64,000 nucleotides of DNA from Candidatus Woesebacteria bacterium (GTDB taxonomy: Bacteria > Patescibacteriota > Microgenomatia > UBA1400 > MFAQ01), in assembly GCA_035389185.1 (NCBI GenBank), contig DAOORK010000001.1, forward strand, positions 510,218-574,217, given 5' to 3'. Position numbers and translations under genes: made by a program. The notes below the pieces were generated by a model. The model was not told where the DNA came from. It did not search any database and worked only from the letters and a program-made list of their open reading frames with translations. Positions 10,397 through 55,188 of the stretch are shown in pieces. The stretch's first letter is position 1; the number at the start of each line of letters is the position of its first letter.

Positions 10397-10429
10397 TTAT
10401 ATGCCAGATTGTCCTACAATATACTGGTT

Positions 10430-12346
10430 ATGGACGATTTTTTCAAAGGGCTTAATAAGGAACAGAAAGAAGCAGTGGTTTTTGGAAAAGGTCCTTTGTT
10501 GATTTTGGCAGGAGCAGGTTCGGGAAAAACGAGAGTCCTAACCTACAGAACAGCGTATTTGATTCGAGAAAAGAAAGTTAAACCCGAGCAAGTTGCCTTA
10601 CTGACTTTCACCAATAAAGCCGCCGAGGAGATGAAGGAAAGAGTAAAAAAACTCCAAGGGAAAAGTGTGTCACTGGGTTTTGCAGGAACATTTCACACTT
10701 TTTGCGCGAAATTACTTAGAGAGTATGGTACGAACGCCGATATTAATCCAAACTATGTGATCTTCGATAGCGACGACTCAGAAGCGGCCATGAAAAAGGT
10801 TCTAAAGGAGATGGATATTGACCCCAAAGAGTCTAAACCATCAATGTTTTTGGCCGTGATTGGTAAGATGAAAAATGATTTGGTAAGCCTGTCTGAAGCA
10901 GAAACTTCGGCCAACGATTACTTCCGCCGTATGGTAGTGAAAGTGTGGAAGGCATATCAAGACAAACTCAAAAACAATAATGCGGTGGATTTTGACGACC
11001 TTTTAGTAAAGGCAGTCGCCTTGTTGAGAATTGAAAGAATCCGAAAAGAAATCAATGAAAGATTGCAGTGGATATTGGTTGATGAGTACCAAGACACAAA
11101 TAAAGCTCAGTTTGAGCTGACAAAATTGTTGGCTGGGGAAAGACAAAATATTACAGCGGTTGGAGATGCCGCTCAGGCAATCTATTCTTTCCGAGGAGCA
11201 GACTACCGTAATCTTGTCTTGTTCAAGAACGAGTACCCCAAGGCTTCGATGGTGAGTCTGCCAATGAATTATCGATCCACACAAAATATCTTAGACACAG
11301 CGTATGGAGTAATTAGCCACAACACGTCTCACCCAACATTACACCTGGAAACAACGGCCGGAGTCGGAGAAATGGTTGATTTTTTTGAGGCTAGTGATGA
11401 AAGAGATGAAGCCAAATACGTGATAGAACAAGCAAGGAAAAGTTCTGCCGAAGACGGGCAATCGGCGATTCTTTACCGAACCAATGCTCAGTCTCGGGCT
11501 TTTGAAGATGAACTTATGCGCCGAGATATCCCTTACAAATTGGTGGGTGGTTTGCGCTTCTATAACAGAGCCGAAATTAAAGATCTGATTGCCTATCTTC
11601 GAGTGGTAAACAATCCAAAGGAAGAAATTAGCCGAGCAAGAATTGAAAAACTGGGGAAAAGAAGGGCGGCTATCTTTGATAAATGGCTGGAAACTCAGTC
11701 CACTAAAAAAAGGTCTGGAAATCCCGGAAAATTACTGGAGGAAATAATTAATGTAGTTGGGTTTTTGGAAAGATTTGATGAACGTGATGAAGATGACGTG
11801 GCCCGAATCGAAAATATCAACGAACTTTTAGCAGTGGCTTCGGATTATGAAAATGTGGAGAAATTTTTGGAAAGTGCGGCTCTGTCGGAGTCGGATATCA
11901 AACAGCACAGATCAAACGCCAAAATAACTTTGATGACAATACACGCCGCTAAGGGGCTGGAGTTTGAGACGGTATTTGTGGTAGGTTTGGAAGAAGGCTT
12001 GTTCCCCCACTCACGATCAATGCTTTCGGGAGAAAAAGAAGAGATCGAAGAAGAGAGGCGCTTGATGTATGTGGCGATGACTAGAGCCAAAATAAAATTG
12101 ACCCTTTCATGGGCACGAAGTCGACTTGTGTTTGGCGGTCGACACTCTTCAATCCCGTCAAGATTCTTGTCTGAGATACCTGAAAAACATTTGAAGAAAA
12201 TTGGTGAAGTGCGAGATGTCGAAAGAAAAATGTCCCCAAAAACTTCGGATCTAGATGAATTTGGAGAAAAGAAGAGAATTATTGTCCAAGATTGGGAGAT
12301 TGCCGAAGCGACAAAAGACGATTTTGCCGAGATAGATAATTGGTAA
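10430..12346 (+). CDS. uvrD: ATP-dependent DNA helicase UvrD/PcrA family
   Basis: Conserved N-terminus MDDFFKGLNKEQKEAV then Walker A AGAGSGKT; motifs VDEYQDTN, YRST, VGD..QAIYSFRGA; track ORF 9827.. is an N-terminal extension antisense to tpiA, start set to in-frame ATG at 10430. Confidence 0.85.
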   Translation: MDDFFKGLNKEQKEAVVFGKGPLLILAGAGSGKTRVLTYRTAYLIREKKVKPEQVALLTFTNKAAEEMKERVKKLQGKSVSLGFAGTFHTFCAKLLREYGTNADINPNYVIFDSDDSEAAMKKVLKEMDIDPKESKPSMFLAVIGKMKNDLVSLSEAETSANDYFRRMVVKVWKAYQDKLKNNNAVDFDDLLVKAVALLRIERIRKEINERLQWILVDEYQDTNKAQFELTKLLAGERQNITAVGDAAQAIYSFRGADYRNLVLFKNEYPKASMVSLPMNYRSTQNILDTAYGVISHNTSHPTLHLETTAGVGEMVDFFEASDERDEAKYVIEQARKSSAEDGQSAILYRTNAQSRAFEDELMRRDIPYKLVGGLRFYNRAEIKDLIAYLRVVNNPKEEISRARIEKLGKRRAAIFDKWLETQSTKKRSGNPGKLLEEIINVVGFLERFDERDEDDVARIENINELLAVASDYENVEKFLESAALSESDIKQHRSNAKITLMTIHAAKGLEFETVFVVGLEEGLFPHSRSMLSGEKEEIEEERRLMYVAMTRAKIKLTLSWARSRLVFGGRHSSIPSRFLSEIPEKHLKKIGEVRDVERKMSPKTSDLDEFGEKKRIIVQDWEIAEATKDDFAEIDNW

Positions 12347-17148: not shown

Positions 17149-20100
17149 ATGAATAAATCGCCGATGGTTCAACGTGCACAAACGAAGATAATTAAGAGTA
17201 TTTTTGTTGTTTTATTGGGAGTGCTTCTGACAACTTCTTTGTTTTTCTATAAAGTTTGGTTTAGTGCAGTTAGTGTTTGGGCAGATAGCTTAACTTGGAA
17301 TTTCTCAACAACCACTGATTACACATATAACTCAGCAAAAATTAGTGTGGTTAATGGAGGTGCTTATCTGGCTTCACCGTCTGGGTGGTATGACTCAAAA
17401 TGGCTGTATCGGAAAGCAATAACAATCGACAATACGGCTTTGGGCACAGTATTGAGTAATTATCAGATCGATGTGGATCTTGACTCTTCGAACTTTGACT
17501 TTAGTAAAGCAATGGCCAATGGAGAAGATATTAGAATTACCGACGCCGATGGAGTAACTGTCATTCCGTATTACCTCGAACATTTCAACAATTTAAATAT
17601 GATCACGCAAGGTGTTGAAAATTATGCCGTCGTAAGTGGGGCGGCGGCCTGGTGGCAATTGAGTGCCAACGCAAATGATTCCGGAGAAAATGCCAACAAT
17701 GGTACTCTGGCAGGTAATGCCGCTTTTTTAGGCTCATCACTCAAACTTGACGGAAATGGAGATTACGTAAGCGTTGCGGATAGTGCGAGTCTGGATTTTA
17801 ATTCTTCTTTCACCATCGAACTTTGGGCAAGGCCGGACACTTTACCGGCAAGCGAAACAACTAGACAGTTTATCGCTAAGGGCGGAACAGGTGACGGAAC
17901 GGGAAATGACCATAACTATTACTTTGGTATGGGAAATGCCGACACCGGTTATGGCCTGACCAAGGGTCCGGGGGTGGTTTTTGGTTTTGAAGACTCGGCC
18001 GGAAATAACTATCAAGTAGTTGAGTATATCCAGTTAAATACTGGTCAGTGGTATCACCTGACAGGTGTATTTGACGACACGGCGAATACTTTGAGTATTT
18101 ATATCAATGGAACACTGCTAAAAACTTTATCCAGCGTAACTGCGACACCTTTTACCCAAAATAGCAGCTTGTTAATTGGAGCAAAGCTAACTAGTGCCGA
18201 GTTCTTTGATGGAAGAATAAGAGAGGTAAGAATGTTTAACTCGGCCATATCGGCGAGTCAGATTTTGGCTGATTATCAAACCACCTCACAAAAAGCAAAG
18301 ATTTGGGTCAAAGTGCCATCGATTCCGGCAAGCTCAACAAAAACTATTTATCTATATTACGGATTAAATTCAACAACTAATCTTAAGGCAGGGTTGATTT
18401 CGGACGTACACGGTTTTTCGGATAATGGAGATAAAAAAGGAGTTCAGGCAACAGACTATTTGACTGACTATATAAACAGAATGAACAATTCATTTGTCCC
18501 GGATGTTTCTGTTGATCTGGGCGACAAGATTACCACAGTTGATCAAGCCACAGATATCACTGATTTGACAACCGTCTCGGGAATATTTGGCAATCTGACC
18601 AGTCCGCATTACTATACTTTGGGAAATCATGAAGTAGCCAATTTAACTAAGACACAGGTAAAGACTGCTCTGGGAATAGACTACACTCGAAAGTCGGTGG
18701 ATGTTGGCAATTACCACATCATTGTCCTTGACTCACAAGATACCGAACAAGCAGACCCTTGGGGTGGAGCTCTGACCGAGGCTGACAAAACTTGGCTAAC
18801 CACGGAATTGGCGGCCACCAGTAAAAAAACACTGGTGTTTTCGCATCAACCTCTCGACACCCAAAATATGGCTTTGAATCAGTATTTTGCGACTAGTGAC
18901 GATGTGTTTCTGGCCAATGCCGCCGACGTCAGAGCCATATTGGAAAACGATGGTGACGTGATCGGAGTTTTTAGCGGGCATCTCCACTGGATCAACAAGT
19001 CGATAATTAACGATATCCCTTATTTTTCTTTAGGGTCGCTGGTTGAGGACTACGGTAAAAACTGGGTAGAAGCTTCAATTGTCGGTAATCAATTTTTGAA
19101 TATTGTCTTTAAACAAAATGGAGAAACGGAGAGATTGATGATCTGGGATTTTGTTAATCACATAGAATTAAACAAGCCATCGACAGCTTTTGATTTTTAT
19201 GACAGTTTTGAGGGAGACAGCGGTCAATGGGCGGAGTTGACCGGACTTACGGGAGGAAACTGGTCAATCTCGGGCAAGGGCTATTTGCAAGAAACAGGTA
19301 CAGCTACAGGACAACACAAAATCCTTAATTCGAGCTACTCGGAACCTGCCAACTATATTATCGAGGCTAATATTGGTCTTTATGGAACAACTGTTGGCCG
19401 AACCCAGTTGGGAGGTTTTGCCTCAAGAATAACAAATAGTACAAACTTTGATGCTATCTACATGGCTAACGATGCCGATGATGATATCCGCTGGAAACAG
19501 ATGGATAACACTACATGGGAGTTGATTGGTCAACAAGCAACTTTTACACCGGATACGTATTGGCATCAGTTAAAGATGGTGAAGCTGGGTAATCAAAGAA
19601 TAGTTTATCTAGATGGAGCACAACAGTTTGATTTAACCAACGCTGATTTAGCTGATGGCACTTTTGGTTTGTGGACATATTTTGACAGTATTCAGTACGA
19701 CAATTTGAAAATTCTTCCCTATGTCGCAACCGAACCAACAACCAGTGTTGGCTCTGAAGTTTTGATTTACCCAAACGACGACCCAACCATTGTTCCGGTA
19801 ACTCCGATAACATTTAACTCAATCTCCAGTTTTACGGAAACAGCAACTAAAAATGATGGCGAGATTAAATACCAAATTTCAAACGATGGCGGAACAACTT
19901 GGTATTGGTATAACTCCGGATGGACAACAACAGTAACAGGCTATGCCGAAGCAAACACAGCTACTGTAATAAACTCAAACATCGGTTCTTTCCCGGAAGG
20001 TGATGGTTCTTTCCTTTTTAGGGCATACCTTCACTCAGATGGAACAGATTTAGTAACGCTGGACGCTGTGGACTTAACTTATGTATTGGACGTGACTGCT

Positions 20101-26257: not shown

Positions 26258-29221
26258 CTATCTCTGGCAGTGAGATTTGAAGGGGCAGGTGGCACATTTG
26301 GTGAGATCTTCAGTGCGGGTGAAATCGAGATCGCGGATTTGGGAGACGGAGGCTTTGATGACCTTTTTTAATTCGGTGACGTCTTCTGGCGAAATAATAA
26401 AGTTTTCCCGGTGGAAATTATTTTGGGCATCGGGCTCGATGAAGTCTATCTGCGTTTGCCGGACTTCGTACTGGAAAGATTTATCTAATTCGGCGAGGAG
26501 CTGGTAGAAAGTGAGCTGACGTTTGTAATCACCGTCGGAGTTCTTGGTGTTGCCTTCGATTTCGTTTCTGGTTTTGGATTTACCTGTCTTGTAATCAATG
26601 ACGCGGACGTGCTTTTCTTTTTCGTTGGTTACTTCTATACGATCAACCTTGCCGGTAAGAGCAATATCGTCTAGATGGATTTGGGAGGTGAGAGAAGTAC
26701 CGAAATTCTTTTCGGTAAAGAGACAAGCGGTAAATTCTTTTTCGTATTTATCGTAGTAAGCGGTCAGAACTTTTTTGCCATGGGCGAGGCGATCTTTGAA
26801 ATCGGTTTCGGTCATGATTTCTCTTTGGAGTGCCGCTTCGAAATCTTTAAGGAAAAGCTCACAGGACTCGAGTTTGCCGTTATTTAATTCTCTGAACAAT
26901 TGTTCAAGGGCGTAGTGCACTGCAGTACCAAAACACATGGCAGGAGCCTTGGCTCTAGGAATTCTGTAGAGATTATCGAGCTTGAATTTGTAGTGACAGC
27001 GGAGATAGGTATTGAGGGCCGTGGGGGAAAGCTTGAGGTCTTTGATGATTTCCCGCAGATACTCGGCTTCGCCATCGTGAAGAGTGACTTCGGCTGCTGG
27101 GGACATAAGAACGGCGAGAATTTGGACAGAATTTTTTTCTATTTTTTTGGTGTCGACTTTCTCTATATTTTCTTTGGGTAAATCTTCGAGGAACATAGCG
27201 GGAAAAATCATTTTGGCGGAGTTTGGGTACTCGGTAGAACCAGTGAGGAATAGACTCTGTTTGGCTCTTGTTAGCGCCACATAAAAGAGACGGCGTTCCT
27301 CGGCGTTTTTATCTTCCTTATCCGTATCTTCGTAACGAAGTATGCCTACGGGGAGTTTGATCATTTCCCTTTTGGCTTTGTTGCCCCAGTGAGTATCGGC
27401 GAAACGATAGATGTAAACAGTTTGCCACTCCAGACCCTTGGCTTTGTGAGCCGTGGTGAGCGTCACGGCGTCGTCGTTGCCAATGAGGACTTGCTCTTCT
27501 AACTTGAGATTGTTTTCCTCCATGATCCGTAGATTCCCGACATAACCAAAAAGATCGAGATCTGGGAAAGAGCTGCTTTGTGACTTAACATCGTCGAAGA
27601 GTGTGCCAAATCGATTCAGCTCAATGATGGGCTGCGGAAGTGCCAAAATATATTCCAGAATCCCCGATTCTTGAAGAATCATCTGGAACATTTCGGGGAG
27701 AGTGTGAGTGGCGGACATAGAGTTCCAAGAAACAAATTTGAGATAGGCTGAGACAACATCATCATCTAACTCGGGGTGATCGGACTGGAGAGAGTCGACT
27801 AGAGTTTTTCTTTCTTGATGAGCGGCTCGGCTAATCTTCAAAATAGAAAGTGGATTGAGATGAAAATAGGGAAAGTTTAATACGGTAAAGAGGTCGAGAT
27901 CGTCGACGGTGTTGTGGAGAGTAGTAGTGACTCTTAATATTTTGAGGAACTGACTAACAAGAGGAGTGGCCAAGATATTGGTGCCGCCCTCGAGGCGATA
28001 AGGAATATTTTTTTGTTTGAACAGATTGACGAGGATGTCGACGTCTTTGTTTTCTTTGACAATGACGGCGAAATCTTTGGGGCTTGAGCCTTTTTTTATT
28101 TTTTCCAGGATGTCACTCGTGATAAATTCGTCTTCGAGAATGGTGGAGCTAAATTCGACGGTTTTTATTTTTTCGTCTTTTAAATCGGTGTTGGCGTGGA
28201 GAGGAGTTTCGCCCAGAAGCGCGGCGGCGGAGTCGAGAATCGTCTGGGTAGAACGGTAACTTTGATCGAGAACAATTTTGGTGTGGAAGGGAAAAGCTTT
28301 TTCAAATTCACGGACGTTTTCTTTACTGGCTCCTTGGAAACGGAAAATGCTTTGGTTCGGGTCGCCGACGGCAAAAATATTGGCGTTCTCACCCCAGAAA
28401 CTGGCAAGAGCGAAAATAAGCCTGTTCTGGGCGGAATTGGTATCCTGATATTCATCAACCAAAAGATACTGGAACTTTTCTTGGTAACCTAAGAGGAAAT
28501 CTTGATCTTTTTCAAAGGCTTCGACGACCCAGTTGATCATGTCGTTGAAATCAAATCTACCAAGTGAGGTTAGTTTGGTTTGATATTTTTCGTAGATATC
28601 TAAAAGATCAATATTTTTATTGACTAGTTTTTCTTTTTCTAGTCTGGCTGTTTTACTAAGATCGTCTTTTTCTGGTTCGTATTCATCTTTTAAAAGAGAG
28701 ACTGATTGAGAATATTTGGCGATGGTGAAGCCCTCGCGCTTTAAATCAGAGATACTACTTAAAATGTAGGGGAGATAGAAGAGGGTGTCGCCTATTGGCT
28801 TTAGAAGAGCGAAGCTTCCCTGCTGCAAAATCTCTTGGATAATCTGAATCTTTTCCAGATCGGTGACATTTTGCATGCCGGCGGGTTTGCTGAATCTTTC
28901 GGGATTTTGGGCGATGACATCGGCACAGAAAGAGTGAAAGGTAGTGACTTGGACGAGGTAGCCGTCTTTGCCGATGAGATCAATAAGGCGTGTGCGCATT
29001 TCTTTGGTGGCCGCCTCGGTAAAAGTGAGGGCGAGAATGGAGCTCGGGTCTGTGTCCGTCTCTTTGAGGATGTTGGCAATACGGGTGGTGAGAACTTGGG
29101 TTTTGCCAGTGCCAGGACCAGCGAGAACCAGCACGGGGCCCTCGATGGTATCGACAGCTTTTCTTTGGGCATCGTTTAACTTTTGGTAGGCTTGGTCAAA
29201 GTTTGGAGTGGTAACTGGCAT
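26258..29221 (-). CDS. UvrD-family helicase fused to C-terminal PD-(D/E)xK Cas4/AddB-like nuclease with Fe-S cysteine cluster (AddA/AdnB-like)
   Basis: 987 aa; Walker A AGPGTGKT, VDEYQDTN, YRSTQ helicase motifs; C-terminal RCHYKF..., VIDYKTGK and KCATCPFKSHC (C-x2-C-x5-C). Confidence 0.8.
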   Translation of the reverse strand: MPVTTPNFDQAYQKLNDAQRKAVDTIEGPVLVLAGPGTGKTQVLTTRIANILKETDTDPSSILALTFTEAATKEMRTRLIDLIGKDGYLVQVTTFHSFCADVIAQNPERFSKPAGMQNVTDLEKIQIIQEILQQGSFALLKPIGDTLFYLPYILSSISDLKREGFTIAKYSQSVSLLKDEYEPEKDDLSKTARLEKEKLVNKNIDLLDIYEKYQTKLTSLGRFDFNDMINWVVEAFEKDQDFLLGYQEKFQYLLVDEYQDTNSAQNRLIFALASFWGENANIFAVGDPNQSIFRFQGASKENVREFEKAFPFHTKIVLDQSYRSTQTILDSAAALLGETPLHANTDLKDEKIKTVEFSSTILEDEFITSDILEKIKKGSSPKDFAVIVKENKDVDILVNLFKQKNIPYRLEGGTNILATPLVSQFLKILRVTTTLHNTVDDLDLFTVLNFPYFHLNPLSILKISRAAHQERKTLVDSLQSDHPELDDDVVSAYLKFVSWNSMSATHTLPEMFQMILQESGILEYILALPQPIIELNRFGTLFDDVKSQSSSFPDLDLFGYVGNLRIMEENNLKLEEQVLIGNDDAVTLTTAHKAKGLEWQTVYIYRFADTHWGNKAKREMIKLPVGILRYEDTDKEDKNAEERRLFYVALTRAKQSLFLTGSTEYPNSAKMIFPAMFLEDLPKENIEKVDTKKIEKNSVQILAVLMSPAAEVTLHDGEAEYLREIIKDLKLSPTALNTYLRCHYKFKLDNLYRIPRAKAPAMCFGTAVHYALEQLFRELNNGKLESCELFLKDFEAALQREIMTETDFKDRLAHGKKVLTAYYDKYEKEFTACLFTEKNFGTSLTSQIHLDDIALTGKVDRIEVTNEKEKHVRVIDYKTGKSKTRNEIEGNTKNSDGDYKRQLTFYQLLAELDKSFQYEVRQTQIDFIEPDAQNNFHRENFIISPEDVTELKKVIKASVSQIRDLDFTRTEDLTKCATCPFKSHCQR

Positions 29222-44421: not shown

Positions 44422-46358
<1,937 letters not shown>

Positions 46359-46405
46359 AGATAAATTGAATTAATTGTTAAGACTTAAGAGTTGAGTATA
46401 CACTT

Positions 46406-46434
46406 AATAGCACTCTAACTCTATGAGTGCTATT
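46406..46434 (-). promoter_or_regulatory. CIRCE operator (HrcA binding site) upstream of groES
   Basis: tAGCACTC-N9-GAGTGCTa inverted repeat (consensus TTAGCACTC-N9-GAGTGCTAA) 48 bp upstream of groES start. Confidence 0.6.
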
Positions 46435-46464
46435 TTTACCAATATTTTTGGCGTTGTCAAGGGG

Positions 46465-47499
46465 TTAGAGAGCAGCTCCTTGGAAATTAGGACAGTTGGT
46501 TTTATACCAAGCCATGGCTTCGGTTGAACAAGCAATGGTTTTGGCGGCATCGAGAACGGGCATACAATCAACCCAACCGTTTGTAGGACAGGTGTATTTG
46601 GCATTGTTTGTTCCTGTAAATTTGAATGTGGAGAGAATTTTGACAGTTTGATCTTGATAGTTTTTTTGTTGATCTGGATTAGAAGCAGGATACATGGAAG
46701 TGATTTCATACAGCTTGTCTCCTTTGATGACCATAACAGTTGTCGAGTCGGTAAAACAGTTTTTTGTGGAAAATTGCATTGCCGGTTCATCTGAAATTGT
46801 GGTCTGAATGAGTGGGGAAATAACGGCTTTCCCCGGTTCGGGGCAATTATCGGCATTGTGTTGATGAACATAGTTAGCGGCAGAGGCAAGTGTTTGAGTG
46901 GGCGCTGTATATTCAAAGTTGATGGATATTTTGTAGCCATCCGAAAGTTCTGATTGGGTTCGTCCGGAATCAATTTGGGCCTGACCAATGTAGACAATAT
47001 CGACAATCGGTTTAGAGTTGGTAGACAAGGTTGCATTCGTGGGGTATTTGATCTCGTACTTTCCTACAGAATCGACGTAAGTTTGCCAGTTGGCTGTTGG
47101 GTCAATTGTGGGTGTGGGTGTTTCCGATGGGACAACAATAGTTGGAGTAGGTGTTGGGGTTGGAATAACCGAGGTCCCAGACATCGGAAGGTAGCGGGCG
47201 GCGAGGACACCAATAAGAACTCCAAAAAGAATAAGAGCAATGACAATAAAGAACGTTTTTAGAAAACCGGATTTCTTAGGTGGTTGGGCTGAGAAGGTCG
47301 GTTCCTGGCTCAGAGACTGTGGCTGGGAGATTGTCTCCGATGACGAGGGGTTGGGAGTTGGGGTGCTCTGCCAATTTTGGGGCGGGTTGAATGTTGGGGT
47401 GATTGGCTGGTTCGACTGCTCTGGGTTTGGGAGTTGGTCTTGGAGGTCGGATGACGGGACCGGATTCTGATCGGGGGTGGTGTTGGGGTCTGGATTCAT
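46465..47499 (-). CDS. Pro/Gln-rich N-terminal, single-TM, Cys-containing extracellular-domain protein (hypothetical)
   Basis: 344 aa; cytoplasmic P/Q/T-rich region, TM (FFIVIALILFGVLIGVLAA), PTPTPT linker, globular domain with 8 Cys; first 224 bp overlap upstream gene in another frame. Confidence 0.4.
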   Translation of the reverse strand: MNPDPNTTPDQNPVPSSDLQDQLPNPEQSNQPITPTFNPPQNWQSTPTPNPSSSETISQPQSLSQEPTFSAQPPKKSGFLKTFFIVIALILFGVLIGVLAARYLPMSGTSVIPTPTPTPTIVVPSETPTPTIDPTANWQTYVDSVGKYEIKYPTNATLSTNSKPIVDIVYIGQAQIDSGRTQSELSDGYKISINFEYTAPTQTLASAANYVHQHNADNCPEPGKAVISPLIQTTISDEPAMQFSTKNCFTDSTTVMVIKGDKLYEITSMYPASNPDQQKNYQDQTVKILSTFKFTGTNNAKYTCPTNGWVDCMPVLDAAKTIACSTEAMAWYKTNCPNFQGAAL

Positions 47500-50449
47500 G
47501 GGCTTTTTCTTTTTGATTGTTAATAGATGGTTCAGACGAAAGGAACCCTTTGGTTTTTAGGACTTCGAGAACTGAAGTGGTTATTCTTAGTTTACCGCCT
47601 TGGGCAGAAGTTTTGGCTAGTTCGATGGCTTCTGGAAAATTAAGCCAGCGAAAATCAGAGTACTCTTCATCCGAAGGGAACTTAAGACTAGAGGAGGCGG
47701 ATGTAGCATAGAGAAAGTAGTATTTTTTGCCCTTCATAGTGACCGACTCACCGGAGTCGAGATTAAGTTCACGCAACCCTTGTTTGTCCGGAGGAAATTC
47801 GATTTTATCGACTGCTACCAGTGTGGGTTTGAAGCTTGTTTGCTTAACGAAGTCCTCGCCAAGTTCTTCGGTCATTTCACGTTTGAAGGCTTTGACAAGA
47901 TCCTCACCATTGTCTACTCCTCCTTGGGGCAGTTGCCAAAGTTGGTGGACTTTTTGAAAGGTAAAAAGGATCTTACCGGAGTTGATGAAACATCCAACAA
48001 CACTGGGACGGAGCCCTTCGGCTCTGTCCTTGTCGAGATCTTCGAGACTTGGTTCTATTGAACTATTTGTCTGGGGTCGCTTCGTCATTTCATTCCTCGC
48101 AACAACAGGAGAGGGTGAAGAGAAAGGTTTGGGAGACTGCTGTTGGGGACGATATGGAGTTGACTGGGAGTATGAGCGATCCTCTCCACGAGGCCCTGAC
48201 TGATTTGGGTAAGCAGGTCGGTACTCTCTTTTGGGAGCTGGAGCACTGGGAGTGTATATAGTTGCTTGAGACATGTCTAAGGCTTCGGTTTTGCGATAGA
48301 ACTGTTCTTCGCTCATCTCGATAATTCTTTGACGATTATTATCTTTGGTTTCCGGTAACGGCAAGGTAGTTGCGGAAAAGGGGTTGGAGATAGAAGCGTT
48401 AACAGAAATCTTGACGATGATTTGGTAACGAGCCAGACCGACAAGATCGTCCTGAGTATAAAAGTTTCCGAGCTCGTTCATGAGTCGATTGGCATCGGCG
48501 GCACCAACAACGAAACTGATGAGTGTACCGGCGTTGCCAAAAATGGCGTCTTGAATTTCGATTGGAAGCTGGGCCGTGTACTGATTGGCCAGAATAAGAT
48601 TGAGGCGGTATTTCCGAGCCTCAGAGAGAATTTTAATGAAGGAAGTCGTGGCAAAGTTTTGAAACTCATCGACATAGAGGAAAAAGTCTTTACGTTCTTT
48701 TTCGGCCATGTTGGCACGGTTCATAGCCGCGATTTGAATTTGAGAGATAAACATGGCACCTAAGAGGGCTGCATTATCTTCACCGATCTTACCTTGAGGA
48801 AGATTTAAGATAATAATCTTGCCGTTGTTCATCAGGTCTTCAAAATCAACCGTGGAGTCTGGATGACTAATAATGTCTCTAATTGTGGGTGAAGTAATGA
48901 ATTGTCCGACTTTATTGAGAATTGGAGAGATGGCTTCTGATTGGAATTTTTCGGAGTATTTATCGTACTCATCGTGCCAAAAATTGTGCAGAACCGGATC
49001 TTGGACGGCGGCCAGGTATTCTTCACGATAGACTTTGTTGGTAAGAATGCGCGGAACATCGAGAAGGGTGGCTCCGGGTTTGGCGACTAAGGTGAGAAGG
49101 GTGTTTCTTAAAATATATTCAAGACGAGGACCCCAAGAGTTGCCGTAGAGTTTACTAAAAATGGAAACAATACCAGAAGCAACTAACTCGGCGTAGGCCT
49201 GGTTTTTGACAAAAAGCGGATTAAGGTGAAATGATTTGCCAACAACCGAAGGGTCGAGATAAGCAACATCTTGGATTCTATTGCTCGGAATGTAGTCCAG
49301 CAAGTGTTCGGCGGTATCACCATGAGGATCGACAAGGGCCATGCCTTCACCATGACGAATATCATTGATGGCCATGTTGGCTAGCAGAGTTGATTTACCG
49401 GTACCGGACTTTCCCAAAACGTAAACGTGACGACGACGATCCTCACCTTTTTTCATACCAAAGGAGACTAAACGATTCTTGTATTCTGTCTTGGCGAAAA
49501 AATTAACTTCTTGTTTTTCTTCCTCGGACATGTCTTCGGAAATTGGAAGGTTAGCTGGCGGTTCTCCCCTTAGAGTCTTGCCCCAGGCAATACCTTTGAT
49601 GTTGGCAAGGCTAGCTCCAGGTAAGTGGTAGATGGCGGCAATTTCGGCGTAGTTTAAAAACTGATACTGATTTGAGTATTGGGTGGAGCGATCGATGATT
49701 ACATTCCTAAGTTTTTCGTAAGAGGCGGGTTTGATGGACTTTAATTTAAAGCTATTACCTTCTGAAAGAGAGTATGTTCCGAAGGCAGCGGCTAACTGCG
49801 AAAGAAGCTGGTTTGAGGTGGATTCATTTTGAGAAATAGCAACCAAACGAATATCACAACCATAGGCCTGATGAGCAAGTTTTTTCTCGATGAAGGTCTT
49901 GGCTGGGTTGGGAGATGCCTTACCTCCTTCAGGGACAGGTTTGGGTTCAAGAGATTTCCTGAGCGACTTTTGCCAGTTGCCGGGAGCGGCAAAAAGAGCA
50001 ATTTGAATCACAGCGGCCTGGCCTGTGGAGACGCGAGAAAGACTACCAAGAATGGCAGTCATCTGATCAACTTTTTCGTCTTCGGTAACATTTAACGGAA
50101 GCTCAGAGGGTGCGGTGAGAACAAGTTGTCCAAACTGAGGCTGGCCGTGGTTAACCCAGTCTGAGAGATAGTCCTTCATGGGGTTTATTAGAGCTGTAGG
50201 GTATTGGGCAGCAATTTGAGAGCGAACAAGGTGTTCCAGACGCTCGGGACAAGCAATAACAAAGTAGGTTGTCTGATTGAGGTTGGCTATTTCAAGAGTA
50301 ATGGTCTCAAAATTGTTGAGAAGGCGATCCATAAAACTGGATTTCAACGATGATTTTATGGAGGCTAAGAATTCGATGAATGCAGCCTGGCCAGTAAGAG
50401 AGTCTTTGGCAGGACGAATCTGCAGTACCGAATATTTGGGCAGGGCCAT
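47276..50449 (-). CDS. VirD4/TraD(T4CP)-like AAA ATPase fused to NUDIX hydrolase domain, Pro-rich C-terminal tail
   Basis: 1057 aa; Walker A VLGKSGTGKST, Walker B FLYVDEFQNF, TraD/TrwB-like region LNLILANQY...; C-terminal Nudix box GGVDNGEDLVKAFKREMTEELGE (G-x5-E-x7-REUxEExGU). Confidence 0.6.
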   Translation of the reverse strand: MALPKYSVLQIRPAKDSLTGQAAFIEFLASIKSSLKSSFMDRLLNNFETITLEIANLNQTTYFVIACPERLEHLVRSQIAAQYPTALINPMKDYLSDWVNHGQPQFGQLVLTAPSELPLNVTEDEKVDQMTAILGSLSRVSTGQAAVIQIALFAAPGNWQKSLRKSLEPKPVPEGGKASPNPAKTFIEKKLAHQAYGCDIRLVAISQNESTSNQLLSQLAAAFGTYSLSEGNSFKLKSIKPASYEKLRNVIIDRSTQYSNQYQFLNYAEIAAIYHLPGASLANIKGIAWGKTLRGEPPANLPISEDMSEEEKQEVNFFAKTEYKNRLVSFGMKKGEDRRRHVYVLGKSGTGKSTLLANMAINDIRHGEGMALVDPHGDTAEHLLDYIPSNRIQDVAYLDPSVVGKSFHLNPLFVKNQAYAELVASGIVSIFSKLYGNSWGPRLEYILRNTLLTLVAKPGATLLDVPRILTNKVYREEYLAAVQDPVLHNFWHDEYDKYSEKFQSEAISPILNKVGQFITSPTIRDIISHPDSTVDFEDLMNNGKIIILNLPQGKIGEDNAALLGAMFISQIQIAAMNRANMAEKERKDFFLYVDEFQNFATTSFIKILSEARKYRLNLILANQYTAQLPIEIQDAIFGNAGTLISFVVGAADANRLMNELGNFYTQDDLVGLARYQIIVKISVNASISNPFSATTLPLPETKDNNRQRIIEMSEEQFYRKTEALDMSQATIYTPSAPAPKREYRPAYPNQSGPRGEDRSYSQSTPYRPQQQSPKPFSSPSPVVARNEMTKRPQTNSSIEPSLEDLDKDRAEGLRPSVVGCFINSGKILFTFQKVHQLWQLPQGGVDNGEDLVKAFKREMTEELGEDFVKQTSFKPTLVAVDKIEFPPDKQGLRELNLDSGESVTMKGKKYYFLYATSASSSLKFPSDEEYSDFRWLNFPEAIELAKTSAQGGKLRITTSVLEVLKTKGFLSSEPSINNQKEKAHESRPQHHPRSESGPVIRPPRPTPKPRAVEPANHPNIQPAPKLAEHPNSQPLVIGDNLPATVSEPGTDLLSPTT

Positions 50450-50467
50450 GATATTAGTATATACAAT

Positions 50468-51079
50468 CTAGGCGTTATCGGGAGCGGAAACAAGAGTACG
50501 AACTGGATGTTTGGTACCGGAGTCGACTACTTTGATGTCGGAAAGAAGAACATTCTCGACGATAAGGCCTTTGTCTTCAAATAACTTATTGAGCTCCATC
50601 TTGAGGTCGCTTTCTATCTTGGATCTCTCATTCCCTATTTCGGAAGAGTCATACTGACTAAAGCCTGAAGAAATGCGACTTCTGGAGTATGGGCGAACAA
50701 CTTTGGAAATAAAGTTGTCTCCAATATTTTCCCAAAGCTCGGGAGCATTGGCTTTATCGATTTTGAAAAGAATCGAGCCTTCGACTGAGATAATCATACT
50801 GTCTTTAGTAGTTGCGGCAATTGGTTCGTCCCCTAGTGACTCTTTTTGAGAAATATCAAAACCGTGACGAATGGTGTACTCAAGAATCTGAGCGTTGAAT
50901 AGTTTGGCAATCTGCCAGAAAGGAAACTTGAGGTGAAGCCCTGGCCCCCAGACACGTTTGAGGACGCCTAATCCGCGATCATAGACACAGGCGACATGTC
51001 CGGGAGGAACGGAAATAAAGAATCCGCCAACAACTTCGTCAACGAGAAATGAGACTACGAGTTTATCAAAATCAGCCAT
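50468..51079 (-). CDS. SPFH/band-7 domain protein
   Basis: Start set at MADFDKL (ATG comp. 51077-51079); SPFH-like core (VVDEVVGGFFISVPPGHVACVYDRGLGVLKRVWGPGLHLKFPF...); longer track ORF to 51253 overlaps upstream gene. Confidence 0.5.
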   Translation of the reverse strand: MADFDKLVVSFLVDEVVGGFFISVPPGHVACVYDRGLGVLKRVWGPGLHLKFPFWQIAKLFNAQILEYTIRHGFDISQKESLGDEPIAATTKDSMIISVEGSILFKIDKANAPELWENIGDNFISKVVRPYSRSRISSGFSQYDSSEIGNERSKIESDLKMELNKLFEDKGLIVENVLLSDIKVVDSGTKHPVRTLVSAPDNA

Positions 51080-51089
51080 ATTTCCTATA

Positions 51090-51929
51090 TTATAACTTTT
51101 TTTGGCGAAGCGGTGTGTTTTGAATGTTTTGAAGGTGTTGTTTGAGGGAAGGATACAGGTCGTTTTTATGAAAATACGCAGAGTGAAGAGAAATGGTTTC
51201 GGATGTTTTTTTGGGAAGCATATAGAGGTATTGGAGGAAAAAGAAGATGGCATTTAGAGGCGCCAAGAAGAAGTTTCTTGAAACTAGACGGGTTGAGTGT
51301 GAGGGTGTAGTTTTGGCGTAGTAGGCATTTGCCAAGTACTTTGATGTCCAAGCGTTAGCTTTCAGATATTGTTGATATATATCTCCCCTTTCAAACACAG
51401 GCCGGGCCTGAAGTACTTCATGGGCGGTGTAAAGATTTTGTTTTTGGGGGTGAACTGTAAGACTGAGGGTATCGAGCCAGAGGTTAGGACAAAGGGAGTT
51501 AAGGCGTATGGAACGAGGGTTGTCGCCAGGATGGCGACGAGGGAAATGGAGACTGAGAATCAGGAGAAAAAGAGGGCGGATTAGCCAAAGAACGTAAGGC
51601 TTGGTAATGATTAAAAGATCGATGTCATCGCCTTTTTTGGTGTTTCCTACAGCAACCGATCCGGTGATGGCGATCATTTCGATCCCCGGAATGTGACGAG
51701 TATAAGAGATAAGTGACTGAAGATACTTTTCTTTAGCTTGAGTGTTTTTTAGTAGTAAGAGACGCTTTTCTGTATCCTTTTTTGAGAGAGGTGGAGAATA
51801 CCGTTGAACTGTTGGGTATGAGACACGCTTGTCTCCAATGAGCCAAAGGTGGATTTCTTTTGAAGATAGGGGGAACGAAAAGTACTCAGAGTAGGCAATG
51901 GTTTGGATGACCGCGGAACGATGGACCAT
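51090..51929 (-). CDS. nucleotidyltransferase (pol-beta superfamily) domain protein
   Basis: 279 aa; GSVAVGNTKKGDDIDLLII (GS-x9-13-DxD) minimal NTase motif. Confidence 0.5.
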   Translation of the reverse strand: MVHRSAVIQTIAYSEYFSFPLSSKEIHLWLIGDKRVSYPTVQRYSPPLSKKDTEKRLLLLKNTQAKEKYLQSLISYTRHIPGIEMIAITGSVAVGNTKKGDDIDLLIITKPYVLWLIRPLFLLILSLHFPRRHPGDNPRSIRLNSLCPNLWLDTLSLTVHPQKQNLYTAHEVLQARPVFERGDIYQQYLKANAWTSKYLANAYYAKTTPSHSTRLVSRNFFLAPLNAIFFFLQYLYMLPKKTSETISLHSAYFHKNDLYPSLKQHLQNIQNTPLRQKKL

Positions 51930-51930
51930 T

Positions 51931-53421
51931 TTAAGGTGTTGGAGTGGCCACAGCAGTCACAAGTCCATAACTTGAAAGGACCTGATTGAACCCGTTGCTC
52001 AGGGTTTCTGTCGATTGGGTTGTGTTCTGATTTTGGACAAAAGCATTTACAGCATCTTCGAGATACTTGATTAGTCTGGAGTTGAGGGCGGTTTTGGAGT
52101 CGTGAGTGGATCCGGCGGTATAAAAAGTACGGGCTGTATCCATGCTAAGAATGTAGGGGGCAACAATAGAGTTTTTTTGGGCAATAGAGGCTACGGCTTT
52201 GTTGGCTGGCGGTTGAGGAAATTCCCTGTCTGTAGTAGCTGAGTCAAACAAAAGCTGTTGAGCTTTAGCTGAGGCTAAGAAACTTAAGAATTTCCAGGCT
52301 TCTTGTGGATGTTTGCTGTTTTTACTAACACCTTCGAACCAGTATGTAGCCCAGTTGACGGTATCGGAGTCGGGAAGCTGGGGCACGGACACGGTTTGCC
52401 ACGAAAGTGAAGGATTGATAGTTTTGATATCAATCGCGCGATATGAGGGGGCAATAACCATGGCCACTTTTTCGTTGGCAAAGGCTGTAACTGAAGGAGG
52501 AAGGGTGTCGTCCCAGACATGATTTTTGTTAACAAAATCTACATAGTATTGAAGGGTGGAAGTAACTTCTGGCCCTTTGGGGTCTGTTAGCTTGACACCG
52601 GCCTGAAGAAGCATGAGACTGACAATATCGGACCAGTGCTCAACGTTGGCTGTATTACCGAGGGCGATACCTGCGCGAGTAATTTTGCCGGTTTGAGGAT
52701 CAACTTCTTTGAGCATTCTGGCGGCGTTAAGAACATCTGGCCAGGTTTTGGGGAAATCGAGCGACTTTTGCTGAAACATGGAGGTGTTGATGTAAAGAGC
52801 CAAGCCTTCCATGGTCATGGGTACTCCGTAAACTGAGGTGCCGGAAACGAGAGTTTTGGCGACGACGGGATAAAAGTTGGTAGAGATCTCGGTGGCTGAA
52901 ACGGAGTTGGTCGGAGCAGGAAATAAATCTTTGGCTAGTAAGGGAAGCCAGGTAGAGTGCAGACGCACGATATCAGGAGAGTTTTGACTTTCAAGTGCAG
53001 TTTTGACACGATCTTGATAGTCTTGTGAAGATTGGAGTTGGTAGCTAATTTTTATGGTTGGGTTTTCCTTTTCAAATTCGTCAATGACGGGTTTCATAAC
53101 GGCCGACGATTCCCACAGTCCGTAGTATGTAAGAGTCACAGTCTGGGTTGTAGAGGCAGATTTTGTACTCGATTGGCCGCTAAAAATCTTGGAGAGACCA
53201 AAAACAATACCTGCAATAACTAGAGCGCCAATTAAAACCGGAATAATAATCTTAGGAAAAGATGATTTTGTCTTTGGAGCTTTGACGGAAGCCGGAGCTT
53301 GGTAACTGGGAGGGGGCGGGGCGGCTTCTTCCGGAGCAGGAAGTGGAGTATTCCCAGAAGGAATTTCTGTGGTAGAAACTGGTCCGGGTAAGGGAAATAA
53401 ATTATCCATGTATAAATTCAA
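51931..53421 (-). CDS. extracellular solute-binding protein family 1 (ABC-type sugar-binding), TM-anchored
   Basis: 496 aa; cytoplasmic Pro-rich N-term, TM anchor, SBP_bac_1-like body (TLTYYGLWESS...PDIVRLHSTWLP...). Confidence 0.6.
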   Translation of the reverse strand: MNLYMDNLFPLPGPVSTTEIPSGNTPLPAPEEAAPPPPSYQAPASVKAPKTKSSFPKIIIPVLIGALVIAGIVFGLSKIFSGQSSTKSASTTQTVTLTYYGLWESSAVMKPVIDEFEKENPTIKISYQLQSSQDYQDRVKTALESQNSPDIVRLHSTWLPLLAKDLFPAPTNSVSATEISTNFYPVVAKTLVSGTSVYGVPMTMEGLALYINTSMFQQKSLDFPKTWPDVLNAARMLKEVDPQTGKITRAGIALGNTANVEHWSDIVSLMLLQAGVKLTDPKGPEVTSTLQYYVDFVNKNHVWDDTLPPSVTAFANEKVAMVIAPSYRAIDIKTINPSLSWQTVSVPQLPDSDTVNWATYWFEGVSKNSKHPQEAWKFLSFLASAKAQQLLFDSATTDREFPQPPANKAVASIAQKNSIVAPYILSMDTARTFYTAGSTHDSKTALNSRLIKYLEDAVNAFVQNQNTTQSTETLSNGFNQVLSSYGLVTAVATPTP

Positions 53422-53472
53422 CTAAAATAGTCGTGTCATTGGTACAATGACACTAGTTAAAGTATATCAAGA

Positions 53473-55188
53473 ATGAATAGAATAAAAAACCTTGTCTGGA
53501 TCGTTGTGGTGATATTTTTTATCCTGATAGCAGTGTACTCTGGCTATCAACTAGCCTTTAGAGGATTAATTTTTCCGAAGGTGACTATTGCCGGAATAAA
53601 TGTTGGCGGTATGGATAGGATCACAGCGTTAAAACTGGTGGAAAATTCATTTTCTTTGAATCCAACGAAGATAATTCTTAGGGTAGGAGAGAAAGAGGTT
53701 GAAGATATTAACAAGATTAAAGTGGAGAAAGATTTAAATTGGGCAGTAGAACAAACTTTTTTGGTGGGAAGGAACGGAAATATACTGACACAAATTACCG
53801 AGCAAATAAAAACAGTCTTTTTATCTCGAGATATTGCAGTGCCAATTAGCTACAACCAAGATGATTTGCAAGGATACATTGATCAACTGGCATTGGAGAT
53901 TAATCAAGAACCTGTTTGGCCGAAACTGATGCTTATAAACGGAACTTATGGTATTGAGCCTGGAAAAGACGGTTTGGAAATTAAAAAAGAACAGCTTATT
54001 GGTGAGATTGTAAAAAGATGGGGATTTTCTGACAAACAACTGATTGATATTCCCCTGGAAAGAGTAAGCACTGAACAAAATGAGGAGATGGCGAACAGGG
54101 CAGTGGCTGCTTTAAATAAGTGGGGAGAGAAGAATCTAACACTGACTTACCATAATTTTGAGGACAGTTTAGAGAAAAAAGAAATGGCAGATCTGCTCGG
54201 ATTGATGAATGACATTATTGATGAAAATAAATTTGAAACTTTGCTGGTACGAATACAGCAAGAGATTGAGACTGAACCCAAAAATGCCATATTCCAATTT
54301 GAAGATAACGTTGTCAAAGAGTTTCAGCCTGAGGTCATGGGGGTTGAAATTGATATTCCAAGTTTTAAAACAAAGTTAGGTGAGGTATTGTTGACAGCAG
54401 AAACTGAGACCTTGGAAATCCCGGTGATACTGACAAGCCCCAAGATAAAAACAGGCGACATAAATAATTTGGGCATAAAAGAGTTAATAGGAGAAGGAAC
54501 TTCGAAGTTTGCTCATTCAATAGCCGGTAGAGTGTTTAATATCAACCTGGCATCGTCGCGTGTAAACGGAACACTGGTCGCCCCAGGAGAGGAATTTTCT
54601 TTTAATAAGGCTGTTGGTGACATATCGAGAGCAACTGGTTACCAGCCAGCATACGTAATTAGCGGAGGAAAAACGGTATTGGGTGACGGGGGCGGTGTGT
54701 GTCAGGTGTCGACAACAGTTTTTAGAGCGGCATTAAAAGCGGGACTGCCAATAACCGAAAGAAAAGCTCATGCATATAGAGTTGGTTACTACGAACAGGA
54801 TAGCAACCCCGGAATTGATGCCACTGTTTACAACCCAACTGCAGATTTGAAGTTTATAAACAATACTGAGCACCATATTTTGATTCAGATAGAAGTTGAT
54901 ACACCGAATATGGCAATGAGGGTTGGGATATATGGAGCAAATGATGGACGAAAGATAACCATGACTGAACCGAAGATATCAAGACAGGTTGCACCGCCTG
55001 CGACTTTGTATGTTGACGATCCAACTTTGGCAGTAGGTCAAACAAGGCAGATTGATTGGTCTGCTTGGGGGGCAAATGTGTCTTTCGACTACAAGGTAGT
55101 AAAGGGGGAACAAACAATTTTTGAAAAGACTTTTTATAGCAATTATCAGCCTTGGCGAGCAATTTACTTGAGAGGTACAAAGATTTAG
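53473..55188 (+). CDS. VanW-family (YoaR-like) protein with N-terminal TM
   Basis: 571 aa; C-terminal VanW core (GTSKFAHSIAGRVFNINLASSRVNGTLVAPGEEFSFNK...GGGVCQVSTTVFRAALKAGLPITERKAHAYRV). Confidence 0.75.
   Translation: MNRIKNLVWIVVVIFFILIAVYSGYQLAFRGLIFPKVTIAGINVGGMDRITALKLVENSFSLNPTKIILRVGEKEVEDINKIKVEKDLNWAVEQTFLVGRNGNILTQITEQIKTVFLSRDIAVPISYNQDDLQGYIDQLALEINQEPVWPKLMLINGTYGIEPGKDGLEIKKEQLIGEIVKRWGFSDKQLIDIPLERVSTEQNEEMANRAVAALNKWGEKNLTLTYHNFEDSLEKKEMADLLGLMNDIIDENKFETLLVRIQQEIETEPKNAIFQFEDNVVKEFQPEVMGVEIDIPSFKTKLGEVLLTAETETLEIPVILTSPKIKTGDINNLGIKELIGEGTSKFAHSIAGRVFNINLASSRVNGTLVAPGEEFSFNKAVGDISRATGYQPAYVISGGKTVLGDGGGVCQVSTTVFRAALKAGLPITERKAHAYRVGYYEQDSNPGIDATVYNPTADLKFINNTEHHILIQIEVDTPNMAMRVGIYGANDGRKITMTEPKISRQVAPPATLYVDDPTLAVGQTRQIDWSAWGANVSFDYKVVKGEQTIFEKTFYSNYQPWRAIYLRGTKI

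Follow-up and report, generated by a model that had tools for sequence, protein, structure and literature searches.

Type IV coupling proteins (T4CPs), among them TrwB of R388, VirD4, TraD, DotL, and Cag-beta, share a nucleotide-binding domain fold with an all-alpha insertion, are anchored by an N-terminal transmembrane segment, and typically end in a long disordered C-terminal tail. In ATPases of the VirB4/TrwK kind, the RecA-like motor at the C-terminus is preceded by a large alpha/beta domain, and HerA helicases combine an N-terminal HAS-barrel with a HerA-type motor, usually in the company of a NurA or effector partner. The available text of a 2025 survey counts 5,713 VirD4-like T4CP homologues in 2,918 Patescibacteria genomes (~2 per genome), of which 148 lie near virB4 and 97% lack such linkage; it further reports that the T4CP homologue of Southlakia is non-essential, whereas other genes of the type IV secretion system (T4SS) are essential, and remarks that exaptation of these homologues "cannot be ruled out" (PMC12102498). 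The gene described here is evidently one of these orphan homologues. It lies in a 64,000-nt stretch of DNA from Candidatus Woesebacteria bacterium (assembly GCA_035389185.1, contig DAOORK010000001.1, positions 510,218 to 574,217), hereafter the window, and encodes a T4CP-like motor that is joined at its N-terminus to a VirB4-like domain and at its C-terminus to a Nudix fold.

In our tentative judgement, which stays somewhat below an even chance, the protein as a whole is best explained as an orphan ring-motor ATPase of the VirB4/VirD4 lineage that was exapted from conjugation and carries a swappable nucleic-acid-engaging tail. Its architecture and ancestry, taken by themselves, are almost certain. 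The gene and its parts are the following:

47276-50449, minus strand: whole gene (DUF8128, T4CP-like ATPase, tether, Nudix module, Pro-rich tail; 1057 aa), stop codon included
49535-50449, minus strand: N-terminal DUF8128 domain (PF26449), residues 1-305, soluble alpha/beta, no transmembrane helix, similar to the N-terminal domain of VirB4/TrwK
48275-49522, minus strand: P-loop motor of the T4CP (TrwB/VirD4) type, residues 310-725
49388-49414, minus strand: Walker A motif GKSGTGKST, residues 346-354
48827-49201, minus strand: all-alpha insertion, residues 417-541, lying between the two Walker motifs and equivalent to the all-alpha domain of TrwB
48653-48682, minus strand: Walker B motif FLYVDEFQNF, residues 590-599
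48062-48271, minus strand: disordered Ser/Pro/Gln-rich tether, residues 727-796
47540-48061, minus strand: Nudix-fold module of the RppH/Ap4A-hydrolase (NudH) type, residues 797-970
47855-47923, minus strand: Nudix box GGVDNGEDLVKAFKREMTEELGE, residues 843-865, with the seven signature residues complete
47279-47527, minus strand: disordered Pro-rich C-terminal tail, residues 975-1057

The open reading frame (ORF) starts with ATG and fills this interval with 1057 uninterrupted codons. An earlier note on this DNA, which left the strand unstated, had claimed a single polypeptide, and the Walker A, Walker B, and Nudix motifs that it quoted were each located in this one frame. An AlphaFold2 model based on 44 homologues (mean predicted local distance difference test score, pLDDT, 77.7) contains three confident folded parts and two disordered ones. 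The halves of the protein meet at a low-complexity linker, a possible hiding place for a misjoin, and a few close homologues (P0032, P0095-97) stop just past the ATPase, so that an assembly chimera or a frameshift fusing two separate genes had to be considered. The identical 1057-aa protein is, however, present on 8 contigs produced by independent assemblies and assemblers (JGI 3300010355, Logan SRR4244858, and others), and of the 120 best homologue clusters (clustered at 90% identity), 100 share the fusion, at 51-82% identity to the query and with linkers of varying length. Nor was an unfused ATPase gene with an adjoining free-standing Nudix gene seen in any locus examined. An artefact is therefore hardly credible and can be regarded as already refuted for practical purposes, which removes the chimera that the earlier note had named as a possible refutation. 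The gene is vertically inherited, chromosomal, and derives from a Woesebacteria-like Microgenomatia bacterium; the identical database protein is annotated as "NUDIX domain-containing protein" of Candidatus Woesebacteria. The claim that the architecture is unusual and not a standard described one is right in that the literature searched holds no description of the fusion; in databases, however, it is not rare, being the standard gene form in one Microgenomatia subclade.

The motor domain (pLDDT ~85-90) superposes best on TrwB (Foldseek TMt 0.61-0.65, root-mean-square deviation ~4.7-5 A over ~415 columns, 16-17% identity, E ~1e-11 to 1e-10), followed by DotL and Cag-beta, whereas HerA fits the full model more poorly (TMt 0.48, root-mean-square deviation ~16 A). 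The phmmer search likewise retrieved TrwB (E 1.3e-5) and DotL (2.8e-5). As in T4CPs, the Walker motifs are conserved: G346, K347, S348, G349, T350, G351, K352, and T354 of Walker A and L591-F599 of Walker B are invariant across 44 sequences. The same applies to R612 and Q623, which follow Walker B and pair, in the TrwB alignment, with its segments GRKAG and GLQSTSQL (QSTSQL). Pfam DUF87, a model common widely to this ATPase group, matches residues 339-552 (27.7 bits against a cutoff of 23.2). The T4CP families of Pfam score under their cutoffs here (TraG-D_C 19.9 against 22, TrwB_AAD_bind 18.4 against 20.5), and the VirD4-like, TraD, and CedD models of NCBIfam match far under theirs (conju_CD1115 39 against 250), but orthologues and paralogues exceed the Pfam cutoffs for TraG-D_C, T4SS-DNA_transf, and TrwB_AAD_bind (36.9-43.6 bits for the last). 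The TraD/TrwB-type core proposed earlier thus holds, on the TrwB superposition (TMt 0.63), the sequence matches to TrwB and DotL, and the scores of the orthologues; the label "AAA" does not, as the protein is a P-loop motor of the T4CP/VirB4/HerA kind and not AAA+.

The N-terminal domain, which the earlier note gave as ~340 aa of unknown nature, corresponds to Pfam DUF8128, a name taken from precomputed annotation. Modelled alone (pLDDT 87.6, predicted template modelling score 0.88), it matches PDB entries with Foldseek E-values of 4e-4 or lower only in ten TrwK/VirB4 chains of the R388 T4SS (best E 7e-7, probability 1.0, TMq 0.44-0.51); the remaining PDB matches begin at E 2e-3, mostly with lower probability. 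The full-length model and TrwK share ~850 aligned columns (E 6e-15), with the N-terminal domain and the motor in the same order. The likeness to VirB4/TrwK has its bounds: TM-scores are only 0.3-0.5 and identity ~8-10%, the motor sequence is nearer to T4CPs, the window protein has no match to Pfam CagE_TrbE_VirB (AAA_10 is matched weakly in one orthologue), and VirB3, VirB6, and VirB8 are absent among its neighbours. The DUF8128 model has no HerA match either, and no gene for NurA or an effector adjoins. No transmembrane segment was found anywhere in the 1057 residues, the highest 19-residue Kyte-Doolittle mean being 1.37, inside the ATPase. Judging by the model, a soluble VirB4-like domain takes the place of the transmembrane anchor of true coupling proteins. 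Because DUF8128 resembles the N-terminal domain of VirB4, this suggests that the branching of the family from the stock common to VirB4 and VirD4 preceded the gain of the T4CP membrane anchor or was independent of it, and the likeness bears on the evolution of T4SS ATPases.

The Nudix box GGVDNGEDLVKAFKREMTEELGE fits the signature GX5EX7REUXEEXGU with matches at G843, E849, R857, E858, E861, E862, and G864, save for the last U, which is E. It is embedded in a genuine Nudix fold, in agreement with the earlier note: Pfam NUDIX (PF00293) covers residues 815-946 (E=1.3e-11, 45-47 bits against a cutoff of 21.1), and the module is modelled with a confident strand/helix pattern at pLDDT ~90-95. The best whole-module matches are RppH/NudH and the hydrolases of diadenosine tetraphosphate (Ap4A). 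In a profile search of PDB, lupin Ap4A hydrolase scored 6e-12 (positions 15-150) and E. coli-type RppH 1.6e-11 (positions 13-168), and the top five NCBIfam models are all RppH (37-40 bits). The module shares with these enzymes the canonical box and the motifs G(Y/L)RP(N/S)V(G) and WQ(F/L)PQGG; it differs from them in its own invariant motifs IEFPPxKQG, MKGKxYYF, and GGKLR, in being covalently tethered to a motor, and in the decay of the box in many orthologues. The hydrolysis of ADP-ribose, NAD, or alarmones put forward in the earlier note is conjectural; among Nudix enzymes, RppH and Ap4A hydrolase stand closest to the module.

The nearest relatives of the module are free-standing Patescibacteria Nudix proteins of ~172 aa, which are 40-47% identical to it over its whole length (alignment A1; 40-51% by BLASTP), all have the canonical box GGIDNxE...REMTEELG, and are likewise matched best by RppH models (46-58 bits). 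Their genes sit at unrelated loci, e.g., next to those for RNase Y and TruB (L008), and at the three loci compared, all of unrelated context, none lies beside an unfused DUF8128-ATPase gene. A 1019-aa neighbour of one free-standing Nudix gene (L007) is unrelated to the query. Since the free-standing relatives keep canonical boxes at unrelated loci and, in the loci examined, never adjoin an unfused DUF8128-ATPase gene, sequence comparison indicates that the module was recruited from this lineage-typical housekeeping enzyme.

Conservation within the fused modules is uneven. All seven signature residues are kept in 33 of 100, including the window protein and its whole subclade, and the three metal-binding glutamates in 75; taken singly, R857 is kept in 52, E849 in 66, and G864 in 38 (60 have Thr there). 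The motifs RPSVVGCF, WxLPQGG, IEFPPxKQG, MKGKxYYF, and GGxLR, which are non-catalytic, are at least 95% conserved. Gains and losses were traced on a rough neighbour-joining tree of the DUF8128-ATPase core. In this tree, canonical boxes occur in two separated lineages (the clade of the window protein and P0098-P0102) with decayed boxes between them, P0031 is a lone canonical box among variants, the S1-bearing proteins group in a single clade, and a module is lacking in a few lineages. The scatter of degraded boxes between lineages with canonical ones implies repeated relaxation, and the simplest reading of the sequences would be a single acquisition of an active enzyme that was later, and repeatedly, relaxed, lost, or replaced.

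Both disordered segments have pLDDT below 50. The tether, of variable length among homologues, is 19% Pro and 16% Ser, and the tail is 20% Pro, a composition that bears out the Ser/Pro-rich linker and proline-rich tail reported from the sequence before. The last ~40 residues of the low-complexity tail (47279-47400) contain a semi-conserved EPG[ATV][DS]LPAN-like ("EPGxDLPAN"-like) patch. Many close homologues terminate in ...SL[IV][IV], possibly a short linear motif for interaction.

The DUF8128-ATPase core extends far beyond the Nudix-bearing proteins. As a search of a word-indexed database with the DUF8128 segment alone returned only 8 fragments, an exhaustive search of representatives was used instead, which gave 665 proteins (E<=1e-3), each standing for a cluster at 50% identity; of the best 150, only P0031, which represents the window protein's own cluster, has the Nudix module. 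The core was confirmed in at least 599 loci of species-representative genomes of Microgenomatia, Saccharibacteria, Dojkabacteria, Berkelbacteria, Peregrinibacteria, Gracilibacteria, Buchananbacteria, and Doudnabacteria, and the match reaches through the Nudix region in 4 of the 80 best core loci. This spread fits the orphan VirD4-like counts and the suggestion of exaptation given in the survey text available (PMC12102498). Distant members occupy other loci, often as tandem duplicates (L041, L042, L046, L047, L052, L053). In 28 distant loci (among L014-L089), a gene for a ~360-aa protein with Sigma70_r4 and HARE-HTH matches lies ~36 bp upstream on the same strand; topoisomerase I (TopA) is encoded near the distant paralogues in 20 loci and DprA in 12.

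The C-terminal position is modular across the family, being occupied by Nudix, S1, a treble-clef zinc finger, a basic RGG-like low-complexity tail, or nothing. Among distant members, S1 was found in P0165 and P0302, and the zinc finger zf_Tbcl_2 stands in the Nudix/S1 position in L043, L086, L087, and L088 (34-54 bits against a cutoff of 27), with the motif CxxC...(R)P(V/I)(Y/F)CxxC, by which L070 was recognized as well. The tails of some members are RGG- or Lys/Arg-rich.

The DUF8128-ATPase layout is also shared by proteins of large Bacillus phages: gp156 of phage G, gp27.4 of SPO1 (L090), and homologues in CP-51, JL, and Slash (phrog_5156). The tblastn matches reach E 1e-41 over residues 49-703, phrog_5156 is matched at E 1.3e-80, and the DUF8128 fold at TMq ~0.7. 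The phage proteins differ from the window protein in being phage-encoded and only 20-23% identical, and Nudix-specific PHROG matches are to separate families. The product of the gene adjoining gp156 in phage G, gp155, matches the DUF8128 fold as well, and the JL copy is mis-annotated as "lipid A export ATP-binding/permease Msb". Many third-party metagenome-assembled records with homologues (L010, L011, L013, L015, L019-L021, and others) bear the titles "uncultured Pseudomonadales", "Gammaproteobacteria", or "Bdellovibrionales"; their synteny and identities of 43-80% clearly mark them as Patescibacteria, and the titles look like taxonomic mislabels.

The window gene is part of a co-directional string that includes the following neighbours:

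51931-53421, minus strand: SBP_bac_1 solute-binding-type protein (SBP), first gene of the co-directional string
51090-51929, minus strand: conserved 279-aa protein with a marginal NTP_transf_2 match
50468-51079, minus strand: SPFH/Band-7 protein, 203 aa, conserved upstream neighbour at all syntenic loci
46465-47184, minus strand: small downstream gene, 239 aa, with a Cys-containing conserved C-terminus, between the ATPase gene and groES
44422-46358, minus strand: groES-groEL, conserved downstream neighbours

The string SBP, nucleotidyltransferase-like protein, YidC, SPFH, ATPase, (0-3 small genes), GroES, GroEL recurs in 12 of 12 related loci (53-100% identity), and the ATPases there carry Nudix (L001-4, L010-13), S1 (L005), or no module (L006). 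Since it recurs whatever the end of the ATPase, ATPases of this locus are orthologues that differ only in the C-terminal module. Between the SPFH stop codon and the start of the ATPase gene there are 18 nt. At its longest (50468-51253, 261 aa), the SPFH ORF reaches 164 nt into the gene upstream of it; the true start is the Met at 51079, to judge from how the gene is called at orthologous loci and on identical contigs (L001, L002). In all other syntenic loci (L003-L006, L010-L013) the YidC (60KD_IMP) gene stands between the nucleotidyltransferase-like and SPFH genes, and it was not found at the corresponding junction of the window (51079-51090), on the identical contigs, or by tblastn across the 64 kb.

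Genes for VirB4, VirB6, relaxase, or pilin were found neither in the 12 syntenic loci nor among the scanned large ORFs of the window, and VirB3 and VirB8 are absent from the vicinity of the ATPase gene at the syntenic loci. A tblastn search with the ATPase and Nudix sequences revealed no second copy of either in the window, a test that a divergent VirB4 could escape. Because the protein lacks a transmembrane anchor and neither T4SS nor relaxase genes came to light in the window and the 12 syntenic loci, it is not a bona fide coupling protein, a name that its own sub-cutoff T4CP scores do not favour either; the T4SS neighbourhood that the earlier note proposed to look for did not appear. The surroundings contain no integrase or mobile-element signatures, and composition is uniform. 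A scan of 45900-53700 for promoters and terminators gave counts not above those of shuffled sequence, so that it is uninformative on operon structure.

Of the two overlapping ORFs on the minus strand between the ATPase gene and groES (46404-47184), neither has a Pfam match. The 239-aa frame is probably a real gene, its C-terminal motif YTCPxNGWVDCMP...NCPxFxGAA being kept in L013, L010, L006, and L004, and the overlapping 210-aa ORF (46404-47036) looks spurious. The 279-aa protein, whose NTP_transf_2/Polbeta match is marginal and confined to residues 72-112, is a possible nucleotidyltransferase partner by sequence; no PDB relative was found for it by sequence, and the analysis yielded no functional tie to the Nudix module.

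No paper mentioning DUF8128 or PF26449 and none on a T4CP-Nudix fusion was found in the literature search, and a query combining the Candidate Phyla Radiation with RppH returned nothing relevant. Among T4CPs, whose long disordered C-terminal extension the window protein shares, an enzymatic or oligonucleotide-binding-fold tail domain is described for none in the papers searchable here. Actinomycete integrative and conjugative elements such as pSAM2 move DNA via an FtsK-like translocase. The sole link between Nudix and conjugation found in the search is a Nudix protein of these elements, Pif (pSAM2), which confers "conjugal immunity" by a mechanism given as unknown; it differs in being a separate protein on a mobile element with a different motor family (PMC3218068). 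In the available text of the Patescibacteria survey, "Nudix" and "DUF87" each occur 0 times, and a term search that did not include "S1" or "DUF8128" met no description of N-terminal domains or C-terminal fusions of T4CP homologues (PMC12102498). Relative to that text, the VirB4-like N-terminal domain, the modular C-terminal tail, and the SPFH/YidC/GroESL synteny appear to be new.

With respect to function, we think it fairly probable that the protein is a nucleic-acid-handling motor and not a conjugative coupling protein. The alternative modules of the family (S1, zinc finger, RGG tails) hint at nucleic-acid handling, and the position of distant paralogues beside DprA, TopA, and the Sigma70_r4/HARE-HTH protein was counted in its favour. 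The motor would assemble as a hexamer near the membrane, where the VirB4-like N-terminal domain could serve as a dock, with the SPFH protein as a candidate partner. It may bind or thread single-stranded nucleic acid, as TrwB does with DNA, while the tethered C-terminal module would capture the substrate. The Nudix module, in turn, might act on the 5' terminus of the bound polynucleotide, removing its pyrophosphate or an NpnN-type cap, or it might cleave a dinucleoside polyphosphate, and 5'-end processing would thereby be coupled to ATP-driven handling; in lineages with a decayed box, the module would act as a binding domain only. That RNA 5'-end or NpnN hydrolysis is the specific chemistry of the module is possible, but we hold it to be doubtful.

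Several observations weigh against this account. The nucleic-acid substrate is a prediction, the hexameric state and proximity to the membrane are assumed by analogy with homologues, and gains and losses were read from a tree that is rough. S1 and zinc-finger domains can mediate other interactions, T4CPs translocate proteins too, and the neighbours YidC, SPFH, and GroES/EL suggest membrane-protein biogenesis over nucleic-acid metabolism. The fused module and its free-standing relatives fall far under the equivalog cutoffs of the NCBIfam RppH models (37-58 against 116-259 bits), and the Tyr 16-18 residues past the box, a mark of many Ap4A hydrolases and of RppH, is absent here. Catalysis is not the most conserved property of the module, given full boxes in 33 and glutamates in 75 of 100 against the 95% or more of the non-catalytic motifs, and that many orthologues do without an intact box speaks for binding or sensing as the role.

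This last point leads to the alternative that the Nudix fold is mainly a non-catalytic or slow sensor of a ligand (Ap4A, ADP-ribose, NTP, or a partner protein) that gates the ATPase allosterically, hydrolysis serving only to reset the switch. The relaxed signature in two-thirds of the fused modules, next to conserved surface and core motifs, and the repeated relaxation over the tree speak for it. We nevertheless consider it unlikely, since the box is perfect in the window protein and throughout its subclade, most modules retain the glutamates, the free-standing ancestors are canonical enzymes, and orthologues in which S1 or a zinc finger replaces the module point to engagement of a substrate rather than to small-molecule sensing. 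Distinctly unlikely, in our view, is a genuine coupling protein that feeds a Patescibacteria T4SS encoded elsewhere and whose C-terminal modules and tail are receptor or adaptor surfaces like those of TraD and DotL. The core superposition on TrwB with further matches to DotL and Cag-beta, the T4CP families found over cutoff in orthologues, and the typical disordered tail agree with such a role, and distance from virB4 is no obstacle in itself, as t4cp genes often lie far from it according to the survey text available (PMC12102498). Yet a soluble VirB4-like domain stands where the anchor should be, T4SS and relaxase genes went undetected in the window and the 12 syntenic loci, the gene context is of a housekeeping kind, and the counts in the same text (148 of 5,713 near virB4) and the non-essential Southlakia homologue point away from conjugation.

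The neighbourhood itself raises the question of whether the ATPase belongs to a membrane-protein biogenesis or quality-control module with YidC, SPFH, and GroES/EL, its motor unfolding or translocating proteins, as T4CPs can, and the Nudix domain being a passenger enzyme fused by chance. The YidC, SPFH, ATPase, GroES, GroEL string is strictly conserved and co-directional, with the short SPFH-ATPase gap noted above, but groESL synteny may just mirror the conserved gene order of a reduced genome, and YidC is missing from the window locus itself. Moreover, the distant paralogues adjoin DprA and TopA, not chaperones, and the recurrent C-terminal modules (S1, zinc finger, RGG tails, RppH-like Nudix) bind or process nucleic acid, so that we regard this possibility as quite improbable. 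HerA-effector defence systems exist, e.g., Sir2-HerA, and an anti-phage or conflict system made of a HerA/MADS-like ATPase and a nucleotide-depleting Nudix effector might explain the PADLOC match of the ATPase to mad8 (E=9.6e-19), the weak HerA and PDC-S07 matches, and the homologues in large Bacillus phages. The mad8 match is limited to the generic motor domain, however; PADLOC found no MADS or other defence components among the neighbours beyond marginal matches, mobile-element signatures are absent, composition is uniform, and inheritance at one housekeeping locus is stable and vertical across a class-level clade. A defence role is accordingly very improbable and was rejected on genomic context.

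The orphan motor exapted from conjugation remains the reading that we prefer, and a wider generalization of it can be offered as a long shot: the DUF8128 ATPases might be an unrecognized Patescibacteria-wide class of T4SS-derived motors that act at the membrane on single-stranded nucleic acid, plausibly RNA, with interchangeable heads for capture and processing of the 5' end. If this were true, the tethered heads (RppH-like Nudix, S1, zinc finger, RGG tail) would take hold of the substrate and process its 5' end. The motors could then function in the turnover of RNA, or in taking up and salvaging host-derived nucleic acid in organisms unable to make nucleotides, and the Nudix fusion would represent the first instance of an enzyme for RNA decapping or pyrophosphohydrolysis being built into a translocase.

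The orphan VirD4-like ATPases of Patescibacteria, which number in the thousands, have no assigned role, and the sole survey found that counts them goes, in its available text, no further than possible exaptation. The Nudix fusion, together with its S1 and zinc-finger sister forms, is a Rosetta-stone clue to nucleic-acid handling, possibly at RNA 5' ends, rather than to conjugation, and offers read-outs that lend themselves to direct testing, namely the action of the Nudix domain on pppRNA, capped RNA, or Ap4A and the stimulation of the ATPase by nucleic acid. The protein is a T4SS-lineage ATPase with an enzymatic tail of an unprecedented kind and overturns nothing, but it gives a concrete handle on a large unexplained ATPase family in an important uncultivated lineage. 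Should its function be mundane, a housekeeping Nudix merely fused to a neighbour, a useful correction of annotation would still result: DUF8128 ATPases should be left out of counts of conjugative coupling proteins, and "MutT" alone is not an adequate annotation for them.

Elsewhere in the window, two UvrD-family helicases are encoded at 9827-12346 (plus strand) and 26258-29221 (minus strand), one of them AddA-like with a C-terminal PD-(D/E)XK nuclease. A 1698-aa multidomain protein at 17149-22245 (plus strand) combines Laminin_G_3, DUF2341, Metallophos, purple-acid-phosphatase-N, fn3, and CarboxypepD_reg domains.

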